From the IMG/VR virus record IMGVR_UViG_2534682161_000017, positions 1 to 28,791 of that record: a DNA stretch of 28,791 nt; one strand, written 5' to 3'. The position numbers were made by a program. Source of the DNA: a virus. Its lineage: Duplodnaviria; Heunggongvirae; Uroviricota; Caudoviricetes. Of the stretch, positions 18,001 through 21,000 are shown one piece after another (positions within the stretch are counted from its first letter, which is position 1; every line of letters begins with the position of its first letter).

Positions 18001-21000
18001 AGATTGCTGCGCAGAACTGATGAGCGATCCGAATAGCTCAATGTACGAGGAAGAAGACGATGAATGAGTTAATAAATGGCAATGCTATCAAAATGACAAG
18101 CATTGAAATCGCTGAGTTGGTGGGTAAGCGTCAAGACAATGTGAAACGTACCATCGAAACGCTGGCTAAAAATGGTGTTATCCGGCTTCCTCAAATTGAG
18201 GTTTCCGAAAGAATCAATAACTTAGGGTTCAATGTTCAGTACGAGCATTACGTCTTCGAAGGCGAACAAGGTAAGCGAGACAGTATTGTCGTTGTTGCCC
18301 AGTTGTCGCCGGAATTCACCGCTCGTCTTGTTGACCGTTGGCGAGAGCTTGAGGAAACTGCGGTTAATATCCCCAAAACGCTACCAGAAGCGTTGCGCCT
18401 TGCTGCTGATCTTGCTGAGCAGAAAATGCAACTGGAAAACCAGCTCGCAATTGCCGCACCTAAAGTTGAGTTTGCCGATCGCGTTGGCGAGGCCAGCGGA
18501 ATTTTGATTGGAAACTTTGCAAAGGTTGTCGGTATTGGTCCAAACAAACTGTTTGCGTGGATGCGTGATCACAAAATCCTTATTGCTTCAGGTTCCCGGC
18601 GCAATGTGCCAATGCAGGAATATATGGATCGCGGCTATTTCACAGTGAAAGAAACAGCGGTCAACACAAATCACGGAATACAGATATCGTTCACCACAAA
18701 AATCACCGGGCGTGGTCAACAGTGGCTGACCAGAAAGCTGCTCGATAACGGAATGCTGAAAGTAACAGGGGAGGCTGCTTAATGGCTAACCTACGCAAAG
18801 AAGCGCGCAACAGAGAATGCCAGGTACGTATTTACGGCGTATGCAATGGCAATCCTGAAACTACAGTTCTGGCACATTACCGGATGGCTGGAATTTGCGG
18901 AACGGGAATGAAACCTGACGACCTGATCGGCGCATGGGCTTGTAGTGACTGCCACGCGGAGATCGACCGACGCACAAGGATTCTCGACAACAAAGACGCC
19001 AGACTTTACCACCTCGAAGGCGTGATAAGGACGCAGGCGATACTGCTGAAGGAGGGGAAGATTAAGCCATGAACGAATATCAGTTTGTGCTTCCATACCC
19101 GCCGTCGCTGAACACCTACTGGCGAAGACGGGGGAGTCAATACTACATCAGCGATAAAGGCCAGAAATACCGAAAAGACGTTCAGCAAATCATCCGCCAA
19201 CTTAAGTTAGACATTTTCACCAAATCACGACTCCGCATCAAAGTCATCGCAGACGTTCCAGACTCCCGCCGCCGCGACCTCGATAACATCCTGAAGGGTT
19301 TACTCGACTCCCTTATCCACGCCGGATTTGCGGAAGACGACGAGCAATTCGATGACATTCGCGTAATTCGTGGTGTGAAAGTACCAGGCGGACGGCTTGG
19401 AATAAAAATCACCGAACTGGAGAACGTATGAACGCCACAATTCAAACGATACCAGAGCTTCTTATCCAGACACGAGGCAATCAGACCGAAGTGGCGAGGA
19501 TGCTTTCCTGCGCAAGAGGAACAGTGCTCAAGTACAACCGAGACAGCAAAGGCGAGCGTCACGTAATAGTTAACGGCGTCCTGATGGTCAAACAGGGCAA
19601 AAGGGGAAGGCCATGAGACTAGAAAGCGTAGCTAAATTTCATTCGCCAAAAAGCCCGATGATGAGTGACTCACCACGGGCCACGGCTTCTGACTCTCTTT
19701 CCGGTACTGATGTGATGGCTGCTATGGGGATGGCGCAATCACAAGCCGGATTCGGAATGGCTGCATTCTGTGGTAAGCACGAACTCAGCCAGAACGACAA
19801 ACAAAAGGCTATCAACTATCTGATGCAATTTGCACACAAGGTATCGGGGAAATACCGGGGTGTGGCAAAGCTCGAAGGAAATACTAAGGCAAAGGTACTG
19901 CAAGTGCTCGCAACATTCGCTTATGCTGATTATTGCCGTAGTGCCGCGACGCCGGGCGCAAGATGCAGAGATTGCCACGGTACAGGCCGTGCGGTTGATA
20001 TAGCCAAAACAGAGCAGTGGGGGAGAGTTGTTGAGAAAGAGTGCGGAAGATGCAAAGGTGTCGGCTATTCAAGAATGCCAGCAAGCGCTGCATATCGCGC
20101 TGTAACGATGCTAATCCCAAACCTTACCCAACCCACCTGGTCACGCACTGTTAAGCCGCTGTATGACGCTCTGGTGGTGCAATGCCACAAAGAAGAGTCA
20201 ATCGCAGACAACATTTTGAATGCGGTCACACGTTAGCAGCATGATTGCCACGGATGGCAACATATTAACGGCATGATATTGACTTTTTGAATAAAGTTGG
20301 GTAAATTTGACTCAACGATGGATAAATGCACTCGTTAAATAAAGCCCTGAGTTAATAGCTCGGGGCTTTTTGCGTTTTAAGCACGACCTTTCTGAAAGCG
20401 CATCAAACCAAATACCAGACAGACCAAAATAATCACCTTATCCGCTGTGGCTACGGTGCGGTGTGCTTTGCATAAAAGAAAACCAGCTCAATGGCTGGCT
20501 TCGTGAAAGCGGGTGGCAAGAGGTTGCGCTAACAACCTCATGCCGTTTTGCCCGTGCATATCGGTCACGAACAAATCTGATTACTAAACACAGTAGCCTG
20601 GATTTGTTCTATCAGTAATCGACCTTATTCCTAATTAAATAGAGCAAATCCCCTTATTGGGGGTAAGACATGAAGATGCCAGAAAAACATGACCTGTTAG
20701 CCGCCATTCTCGCGGCAAAGGAACAAGGCATCGGGGCAATCCTTGCGTTTGCAATGGCGTACCTTCGCGGCAGATATAATGGCGGTGCGTTTACAAAAAC
20801 AGTAATCGACGCAACGATGTGCGCCATTATCGCCTGGTTCATTCGTGACCTTCTCGACTTCGCCGGACTAAGTAGCAATCTCGCTTATATAACGAGCGTG
20901 TTCATCGGCTACATCGGTACTGACTCGATTGGTTCGCTTATCAAACGCTTCGCTGCTAAAAAAGCCGGAGTAGAAGATGGTGGAAATCAATAATCAACGT

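Follow-up and report, generated by a model that had tools for sequence, protein, structure and literature searches.

The gene at positions 18060-18782 of the 28.8-kb window (the whole stretch of phage DNA analysed here) is roi, a known gene of lambdoid phages whose product is the orthologue of the Roi protein of phage HK022. The first-pass annotation had treated it as an insertion in the nin region and as possible regulatory cargo, but it is not new cargo and not an unusual insertion: the name roi dates from 1996, the gene is annotated as a matter of routine and it is among the commonest alternative modules of lambdoid nin regions, so that recognising it changes little. What is new are nucleotide-level candidates for the sites of Roi and IHF, namely an allele-specific palindrome inside the roi coding sequence and, next to it, an IHF consensus core frozen at synonymous sites. 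With these candidates, the 30-year-old and poorly understood IHF-dependence phenotype becomes directly testable with a few synonymous mutations. The reading that we prefer, and hold to be reasonably probable, is that this Roi orthologue is a delayed-early protein which binds the palindrome in its own gene, with IHF beside it, and tunes lytic development.

The gene and its neighbours, the latter called from Pfam matches, are arranged as follows.
16923-17381, ninB
17318-17554, ninE
17515-17898, NinX
17891-18067, plus strand, ninF, the upstream neighbour overlapping the roi start
18060-18782, plus strand, roi coding sequence with an ATG start, 240 aa
18782-19072, plus strand, ybcO (YbcO/DUF1364), the downstream neighbour
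19069-19431, plus strand, rusA, the downstream neighbour after ybcO
19428-19616, ninH
19613-20236, Q

The reading frame proposed in the first pass was recovered exactly, with its start, strand and length, and so was its place between ninF and the DUF1364/rusA pair. The roi start overlaps the ninF stop (ATGAATGA), and the roi stop overlaps the ybcO start (TAATG). HK022 Roi, annotated in HK022_65 as 'roi, DNA binding protein', is 88% identical to the window protein over 240/241 aa (E=2e-157). In both phages the gene lies between P/DnaB and Q, directly after ninF, and the gene order ninE-ninF-roi-ybcO-rusA-ninH-Q is identical. The phages themselves differ: that of the window is P22/HK620-like, with P22-type portal and scaffold genes and an N-like gene, whereas HK022 belongs to the Hendrixvirinae and uses Nun/put in place of N. 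Lambda does lack a counterpart, as had been claimed, its ninF (42269-42439) overlapping ninG (42429-43043) directly with no gene between them. A search of NCBIfam with Roi gave no family, PADLOC assigned no defence model to Roi or to four nearby ORFs, and nothing was matched when the whole window was scanned with Rfam and for tRNAs.

At 80-100% DNA identity, roi was found in 220 phage records and in 1110 of 5426 complete E. coli genomes (about a fifth), with up to four copies per genome; given this recurrence, the reading frame is far beyond chance. Annotations of HK620, HK633 and many Stx phages call it either roi or 'anti-repressor Ant', the name roi being used in HK620, Stx2 phage 86, CUS-3 and others. 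The name roi is also found in papers on Stx phages, which refer to the HK022 work (PMC3430580; PMC4587872). In some Stx2a phages roi is interrupted by IS629 (PMC4587872), and thus it can be lost. The allele of the window is shared, at 97.6-98.5% DNA identity, by HK620, HK633, HK140, Kapi1 and Stx phages (Stx2 phage 86, PA28, phi24B and others). Its left neighbour in these phages is ninF wherever annotated, as in the window; on the right, Stx phages have ninG where the window has ybcO/rusA.

Two upstream features bear on the expression of roi.
11727-12032, minus strand, N-like antiterminator gene
16893-16916, plus strand, intrinsic terminator, tR2-like, upstream of ninB

No promoter-like sites were found between pR (13570-13599) and pR' (20279-20307). 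The tR2-like terminator should place roi in the antitermination-dependent, delayed-early transcript. Because the gene has no promoter-like site of its own, overlaps the codons of its neighbours and has this terminator upstream, its expression should follow derepression.

The view that the protein joins a Rha-like N-terminus to a KilAC-like C-terminus held in a domain search, both Pfam families scoring above threshold.
18093-18356, plus strand, residues 12-99, N-terminal Rha-type winged-helix domain (Pfam Phage_pRha, PF09669)
18381-18485, plus strand, residues 108-142, long central helix between both domains (AlphaFold2 model, pLDDT 50-70)
18435-18743, plus strand, residues 126-228, C-terminal KilAC/ANT domain (Pfam PF03374)

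The two matches are of very unequal strength. PF03374 was matched with 113.6 bits, far above its cut-off of 25.3 (E=7e-33; profile positions 1-106 of 108), whereas PF09669, although covered over its full profile (1-91, E=2.9e-7), scored barely above threshold, with 31.4 bits against 29.9. Precomputed PF09669 matches exist in most Roi homologues, and the AlphaFold2 model, of medium confidence (pLDDT 73.5, pTM 0.36), predicts an N-terminal winged helix; the marginal assignment is supported by both. The central helix of the model is a possible dimerisation element. On the same marginal score, Roi shares its N-terminal family with Rha of phi80 and P22. To our knowledge Rha proteins have no KilAC domain, and their genes lie elsewhere in the genome, in P22 in the late operon. 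Over residues 1-239, Roi also matches PHROG 63, 'anti-repressor Ant' (E=1e-97). Its C-terminal half is 67% identical to P1 KilA, 58% to P1 Ant1 and 32% to Listeria A118 Gp42.

Compared with HK022 Roi, residues 1-21 and 63-240 are nearly identical, and the KilAC domain is 100% identical at the amino acid level. The differences gather in one patch.
18123-18245, plus strand, residues 22-62, allelic variable patch covering the predicted recognition helix and wing
18132-18170, plus strand, residues 25-37, predicted recognition helix within the patch

Within the patch about half of the bases match HK022, against about 99% across the rest of roi, and the helix reads NVKRTIETL in the window and NVKVSIDRL in HK022. 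At least eight patch types occur among relatives. The other roi alleles were brought in by scanning viral contigs for the DNA pattern GGC GAA CAA GGT AAG, an earlier scan having returned only the window's own allele. The pattern itself had looked like a conserved island; as the same sequence had been the search pattern, we discarded its conservation as an ascertainment artefact.

Inside the patch lies the first of the two candidate sites.
18189-18201, no strand assigned, 13-bp perfect palindrome CCTCAA.A.TTGAGG at codons 44-48, candidate Roi operator

The palindrome was first seen by eye and then followed with a dedicated palindrome scan; a generic repeat finder had not reported it. Its 11-nt core, CTCAANTTGAG, has a single exact copy in the window, and a search of the window for further copies, as possible additional Roi targets, gave one copy with one mismatch, in the part of roi that is conserved, a number no greater than chance would give. 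In about 14 of 17 allele types, at least five of the six pairs are formed in the same register despite differing sequences, while the background is 24 of 3480 centres. Paired cells amount to 77.5%, in comparison to 62.2% in shuffles (none of 500 reached 77.5%) and 28-45% in slid registers. The pattern is compensatory, four of the six pairs having changed on both sides among alleles. These pairs were counted in a MAFFT alignment in which 3 of 19 short segments are out of register, and the count is therefore conservative. The synonymous sites of CCT CAA ATT GAG are, moreover, invariant in seven sequences, including that of Klebsiella phage KpV79.

In HK022 the palindrome stands in the same register and differs in sequence as the helix does (CTGCA.T.TGCAG, against CCTCAA.A.TTGAGG in the window). 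More generally, palindrome type tracks helix sequence: NVKRTIETL goes with CTCAA/TTGAG, NVK[IV]SI[ED]RL with CTGCA/TGCAG and DVKRSIERL with CGCCA/TGGCG. The palindrome thus seems to be kept allele-specific through compensatory change, and we regard it as a candidate Roi site. However, palindrome and helix are only about 30-60 nt apart and are therefore inherited together, so their association could reflect linkage and not co-adaptation; the conserved palindrome could alternatively be an RNA hairpin or the site of another protein. Neither of the two HK022 records has binding sites annotated.

The second candidate follows at once.
18212-18224, plus strand, IHF consensus core AATCAATAACTTA (WATCAANNNNTTR), 17 nt past the palindrome centre and encoding the wing tip I-N-N-L

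As one of three matches in the window, this core is not significant alone. It is present, however, at the same nucleotide position in HK022 roi and likewise in Yersinia, Pantoea and Serratia alleles, whose proteins are 51-68% identical. Between allele pairs the codons of the core are frozen (36 of 36 identical for I, ATC, and again 36 of 36 for L, TTA), whereas codon identity is 0.2-0.6 at most other conserved residues and 7 of 36 at the next Gly codon. In every allele with both elements, 17 nt separate the palindrome centre from the core. The two are also missing together from the 933W-type Stx2a alleles, which are 81% identical to that of the window. On the other hand, six alleles (L128, L176, L094, L086, L092 and that of KpV79) have the palindrome and no core, and thus the elements are not always paired. 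Its freezing at synonymous sites makes 18212-18224 a candidate IHF site. HK022 Roi is said to bind a site in its own gene near an IHF site, IHF reportedly stabilising the binding.

A role of this kind agrees in outline with the published phenotype. HK022 Roi has been described as inhibiting the lytic cycle (PMC4587872), and the 1996 Roi paper of Clerget and Boccard, by its title as cited in later work, presents it as inhibitory to lytic growth in IHF-deficient hosts (PMC3430580; PMC4587872). The Rha-family proteins of phi80 and P22 harm lytic growth without IHF (PMC4936722), and so the phenotype reported for Rha and, going by that cited title, for HK022 Roi is the same. Our literature search found no experimental work on Roi after 1996.

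In the mechanism that we favour, Roi would be made as a delayed-early product, once the repressor has been inactivated and N-type antitermination is under way. A Roi dimer would bind the palindrome at 18189-18201 in its own coding sequence through the recognition helix (residues 25-37), and host IHF, bound to the adjacent core at 18212-18224, would stabilise the Roi complex. Assembled on the pR transcript ahead of Q, this nucleoprotein complex may limit either roi expression or read-through towards Q, and in this way lytic development would be tuned. In a host that lacks IHF this restraint would be lost, leaving Roi inhibitory to phage growth, which is the phenotype published for HK022 and also the one that defines the Rha family. 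The conserved KilAC half would then be an effector acting on a conserved target other than the phage's own repressor.

A more far-reaching version of this is conceivable, although we put it forward tentatively. The codons of the recognition helix, its operator and the IHF site lie within about 100 bp and might form a specificity cassette whose parts co-diversify into at least five or six operator/helix types, allowing co-resident prophages to avoid cross-regulating each other's delayed-early transcription, while the near-invariant KilAC half would be directed at a common host target, RecA for instance. If true, Roi would give lambdoid phages a second specificity system that resembles immunity.

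The contrast between the two halves of the protein also agrees with a rather unlikely alternative, in which Roi would be a dual regulator of the AriS kind: its N-terminus would control phage genes, and its KilAC domain would damp the host SOS response, probably via RecA, aligning or suppressing the induction of co-resident prophages. If the KilAC half acted on a conserved host target, its near-invariance beside a diversifying N-terminal patch would be explained. On its own, the KilAC domain from Listeria phages is enough to inhibit SOS gene transcription and lysis, an activity that Gp42 of the WSLC1118 comK phage and Lin2418 have retained (PMC9043618). The layout is common to these proteins, AriS of Listeria phage phi10403S and Gp42 of A118 having a variable N-terminal regulatory domain and a C-terminal KilAC, as in Roi (Azulay et al. 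2022). The published definition of an AriS-like protein (a C-terminal KilAC with an N-terminal AntA/B, Bro-N or pRha domain) covers Roi, pRha with KilAC being one of its three architectures (PMC9043618). When Roi was compared with A118 ORF42, taken as the tested Gp42, the whole KilAC domain aligned at 32% identity (E=1e-16). However, the tested proteins come from Firmicutes and are only 32% identical to Roi; the N-terminal domain of AriS and Gp42 is AntA/AntB, that of Roi is Rha-type. Furthermore, AriS at native levels caused no measurable SOS inhibition (PMC9043618), and such a role leaves the IHF phenotype unexplained.

The first-pass annotation had suggested instead that the protein is an antirepressor able to derepress heterologous prophages. 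In its classical form this would mean that the KilAC half inactivates CI-type repressors, its own or those of co-resident prophages, so that one induction derepresses others. Some evidence speaks for this: P1 Ant1, whose record states that it antagonises C1 via an Ant1/Ant2/C1 complex, is 58% identical to the C-terminal 165 residues of Roi, and the label 'anti-repressor Ant' is given to the gene by both PHROG 63 and RefSeq. Multiple roi copies per E. coli genome mean, moreover, that co-resident targets exist, and cross-talk between prophages through Roi is possible. Yet the rest of the evidence makes an antirepressor role quite improbable. Since roi is a nin-operon gene with a terminator ahead of it and lacks any promoter-like site of its own, it cannot start the induction of its own prophage. 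In P1, ant belongs to the immI operon under the C4 antisense RNA and kilA stands behind a C1-controlled promoter; for roi, no separately controlled expression of the immI, LexA or antisense type, such as marks antirepressors like P1 Ant, was found. The KilAC half, 100% identical in amino acids, accompanies unrelated repressors: the CI of the window is 22% identical to the L001 CI, and HK022 has a different CI again. The same domain occurs at 67% identity in P1 KilA, annotated as able to kill the host, and we know of no report of antirepressor activity for KilA. Likeness of Roi to KilA and Ant1 is confined to the C-terminal half, from the long helix through KilAC, and their N-terminal domains gave no significant alignment and are unrelated to that of Roi. 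AntA/AntB, the domain of anti-repressors such as P1 and P7 Ant1/Ant2 (PMC9043618), had no match to Roi in the Pfam search. Klebsiella Jedunavirus and Salmonella Jersey-like phages, which are virulent and not known to carry a repressor, have full-length homologues as well. Finally, HK022 Roi carries the annotation of a DNA-binding protein and has been described as inhibiting the lytic cycle (PMC4587872), and the only KilAC activity that we found tested, that of AriS/Gp42 in Listeria phages, is SOS inhibition, which suppresses induction (PMC9043618). Our literature search found no published antirepressor activity for Roi. The label 'anti-repressor Ant' thus rests on domain names in the roi family, and should not be used for inferring prophage cross-induction in Stx-phage lysogens, in which roi is widespread and sometimes IS629-interrupted.

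A further alternative, which we hold to be very doubtful, is that the KilAC half is toxic to host growth or division; roi would then be a host-takeover gene whose dose has to be kept low, the restraint coming from IHF-dependent control. For it speak the 67% identity to the C-terminal half of P1 KilA, annotated 'product can kill host', and the KilA-type domain of staphylococcal phi11 Gp07, which keeps the growth-inhibitory effect of its protein in E. coli (PMC5944126). The KilA annotation, however, belongs to that protein as a whole and not to either half, and the carriage of roi in the prophages of about one in five E. coli genomes, although in keeping with repression in the lysogen, is not evidence of toxicity.

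The open reading frame at 18060..18782 (+ strand, ATG start, 240 aa) matches the first-pass annotation in coordinates, strand and start codon, and it is near certain that this gene is roi. A Pfam search bore out both the Rha-like N-terminus and the KilAC-like C-terminus ascribed to it, with the KilAC/ANT domain at residues 126-228 (E=7e-33) and the marginal Phage_pRha domain at residues 12-99 (E=2.9e-7, 31.4 bits versus a cut-off of 29.9). PHROG 63, 'anti-repressor Ant', matched across the whole protein (1e-97), and no NCBIfam model did. The Pfam-called neighbours (ninB, ninE, a NinX-like gene and ninF upstream; YbcO/DUF1364, rusA, ninH and Q downstream) agree with the described location between ninF and the DUF1364/rusA pair, and the remark that lambda lacks any counterpart here was also right, because its ninF and ninG overlap directly.

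HK022, the phage where roi was defined, has the same order (ninE-ninF-roi-ybcO-rusA-ninH-Q), and the window protein is 88% identical to the product of its ORF annotated 'roi, DNA binding protein'. By megablast, roi DNA is 97.6-98.5% identical in HK620, HK633, HK140, Kapi1, CUS-3 and many Stx phages, labelled there 'roi: DNA-binding protein Roi' or 'anti-repressor Ant', with ninF as left neighbour wherever annotated; the P22-like prophage of E. coli MFDS1019527 carries a 100% identical copy. The gene is present in 1110 of 5426 complete E. coli genomes, at up to 4 copies per genome. The observation was confirmed and its interpretation partly supported: the domain calls stand, an antirepressor function is only putative, and the gene, already known as roi, is not unusual. 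In papers on Stx phages, roi figures as a gene for a DNA-binding protein with an effect on lytic growth, and insertions of IS629 into it are reported (PMC3430580; PMC4587872). In the MFDS1019527 prophage, rusA is annotated as frameshifted (20010-20371 of that locus), while it is intact at window 19069-19431. Two 294-aa E. coli proteins, P0006 and P0007, consist of NinB joined in frame to Roi near residue 23 of the latter and appear to be natural deletions of ninE, ninF and the roi start.

The window and HK022 Roi proteins are nearly identical over residues 1-21 and 63-240 and diverged over residues 22-62, where about half of the DNA bases match, against about 99% elsewhere in the gene. Relatives show at least 8 types of this patch. 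An AlphaFold2 model (72-sequence alignment, members 22-90% identical to the window protein; mean pLDDT 73.5) has a winged helix at the N-terminus (strand 11-13, helices 14-21 and 25-37, beta-hairpin 45-52/58-67), one long helix spanning residues 108-142, and a C-terminal domain in which two short helices and a beta-hairpin precede a final helix; as modelled, the patch would span the recognition helix and wing. Two DNA elements in it are conserved beyond what the protein sequence requires. They are listed with the palindromes found in the same codon register of other alleles (L numbers are loci of relatives).

18189-18201: palindrome CCTCAA.A.TTGAGG, centre 17 nt upstream of the IHF-core start
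18212-18224: IHF consensus core WATCAANNNNTTR, found in HK022 roi too, at the identical nucleotide position
HK022: CTGCA.T.TGCAG
L083: CCTGCA.T.TGCAGG
L089 and L099: CGCCA.N.TGGCG
L096: CCCCCA.A.TGGTGG
L094: CCACC.GTT.GGTGG
L086: GCTCAA.A.TTGAGC
Alphaproteobacterial homologue (36% identity): CTCAA.T.TTGAG

About 14 of the 17 allele types form at least 5 of 6 pairs at the homologous register, counting two alleles in which indels have shifted it, compared with 24 of 3480 centres overall. Palindrome cells are paired in 77.5% of cases versus 62.2% in shuffles (0/500 reach 77.5%) and 28-45% in slid registers, in a count for which MAFFT set three sequences out of register, which acts against the structure. 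Four of the six pairs have changes on both sides. Within the group of alleles with the helix NVKRTIETL, which takes in Klebsiella phage KpV79 (44% overall identity), the four palindrome codons are synonymously invariant, while conserved residues next to them are encoded by 2-4 different codons. The window holds a single exact copy of the 11-nt core. The identical 13-mer IHF core occurs in Yersinia, Pantoea and Serratia alleles at a protein identity of only 51-68%; its ATC and TTA codons are identical in 36/36 allele pairs, against a codon identity of 0.2-0.6 at most conserved residues flanking it and 7/36 at the next Gly codon. One Yersinia gene encodes V-N-N-L-G in other codons (GTC AAC AAC TTG), without the core, and the 933W-type Stx2a allele has neither element.

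According to the 1996 paper on HK022 Roi, the site bound by the protein reportedly lies inside roi, in close linkage with an IHF site, and IHF makes the binding more stable. No binding sites are annotated in the HK022 records; judged by sequence, the palindrome and the IHF core are natural candidates for the two. Palindrome type follows the recognition-helix sequence across alleles, and the two lie close enough for joint inheritance; the palindrome could instead be an RNA hairpin or the site of another protein, and we lean only slightly towards a Roi operator. Regulation by Roi and IHF at an intragenic operator is the most likely mechanism: Roi would be a site-specific DNA-binding regulator acting together with IHF, its operator would lie inside roi itself, in the delayed-early transcript upstream of Q, and the conserved KilAC half would be the effector part. 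The Rha family was defined by products blocking lytic growth in IHF-deficient hosts (PMC4936722), a phenotype shared by HK022 Roi. The elements in the allelic patch are the new part, and an allele-specific cassette of operator and helix is a modest, testable lead.

A further palindrome, ATGGCA.A.TGCCAT, lies at roi nt 17-29 (window 18076-18088; 7672-7684 of locus L002), some 113 nt 5' of the main one, where the start of the gene is conserved among E. coli-type alleles. All its pairs form in HK022 and L083 and 5/6 in the window; it could be a second site or chance alone. The P1 record has a predicted IHF site inside ant1 (3946-3958 of that locus), near the internal ant2 start, echoing the one inside roi. 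A Yersinia vastinensis prophage (L090, 2426-3534) has two tandem Rha-domain genes adjoining a divergent repressor-like gene, with different recognition helices (DAKRSIERL versus NVKVSIERL); the second gene has an IHF core and a C-terminal part that is not KilAC-looking.

The window is a P22/HK620-like prophage with a lambda-type integrase, Erf/Rad52-type recombinase, SSB, N-like antiterminator and CI-like S24 repressor. It also has the nin region and Q, genes for replication (O and DnaB-like) and for lysis, and terminase and portal genes of P22 type. Several features outside roi were noted as well.

16893-16916, + strand: strong intrinsic terminator separating the DnaB-like gene from ninB; its 8-bp stem has 6 G-C pairs, with a T-run
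20279-20369, + strand: promoter-like site (TTGACT, 17 nt, TAAATT), then a 13-pair terminator hairpin, directly after Q
10136-11158 and 11248-11718, both - strand: ORFs of 340 and 156 aa just downstream of the N-like gene, leftward early operon
1371-1383, + strand: exact IHF consensus core TATCAATTTGTTG, located between the integrase gene and a 427-aa ORF

The first is the tR2 equivalent, making the nin operon antitermination-dependent, and the second is a pR'/tR' (6S RNA-like) arrangement, for which Rfam gave no match. The ninF stop overlaps the roi start codon (ATGAATGA), the roi stop overlaps the ybcO start (TAATG), and a consensus scan found no promoter-like site between pR (13570-13599) and pR' (20279-20307). 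With no such site for roi and a terminator before ninB, roi is therefore, by established lambdoid biology, a delayed-early gene requiring pR derepression and N-type antitermination, and it cannot start the induction of the prophage that carries it.

The reading of Roi as an antirepressor is only partly supported. In its favour, the C-terminal half shares 58% identity with P1 Ant1, for which the record gives an Ant1/Ant2/C1 complex, and 67% with P1 KilA, annotated 'product can kill host'. Against it stands the expression context just described, and a KilAC half of identical amino-acid sequence occurs beside unrelated immunity repressors: the CI of the window and that of the MFDS1019527 prophage are 22% identical, HK022 CI is a third type, and close copies of the window CI were found by tblastn in only 3 of 216 loci, most of them with short flanks only. 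Full-length Rha+KilAC homologues were also found among Klebsiella Jedunavirus and Salmonella Jersey-like phages, which are virulent. Moreover, the Bro-N+KilAC proteins P0174 and P0236 have C-terminal halves 95% and 79% identical to that of the KpV79 Rha+KilAC protein, which is direct evidence of N-terminal domains swapped on the same KilAC module; KilAC therefore behaves as a module common to different DNA-binding heads. By Pfam, the Roi N-terminal domain is not of the AntA/AntB type, named for anti-repressors such as P1 and P7 Ant1/Ant2 (PMC9043618). Experimental dissection of the Listeria phage proteins AriS and Gp42 assigned inhibition of the SOS response, probably via RecA, to KilAC and control of the phage's own genes to the N-terminal domain; pRha+KilAC is listed among the AriS-like architectures (PMC9043618). 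A118 ORF42, taken as the tested Gp42, is 32% identical to Roi over the KilAC domain.

The 340-aa and 156-aa ORFs occupy a position typical of accessory or exclusion genes; neither had a Pfam or PADLOC match, and their PHROG matches were only to families of unknown function. The IHF core at 1371-1383, flanked by the integrase gene (1419-2489, - strand) and the 427-aa ORF (1-1284, - strand; end-to-end match to PHROG 12036, unknown function), may be part of an attachment-site arm.
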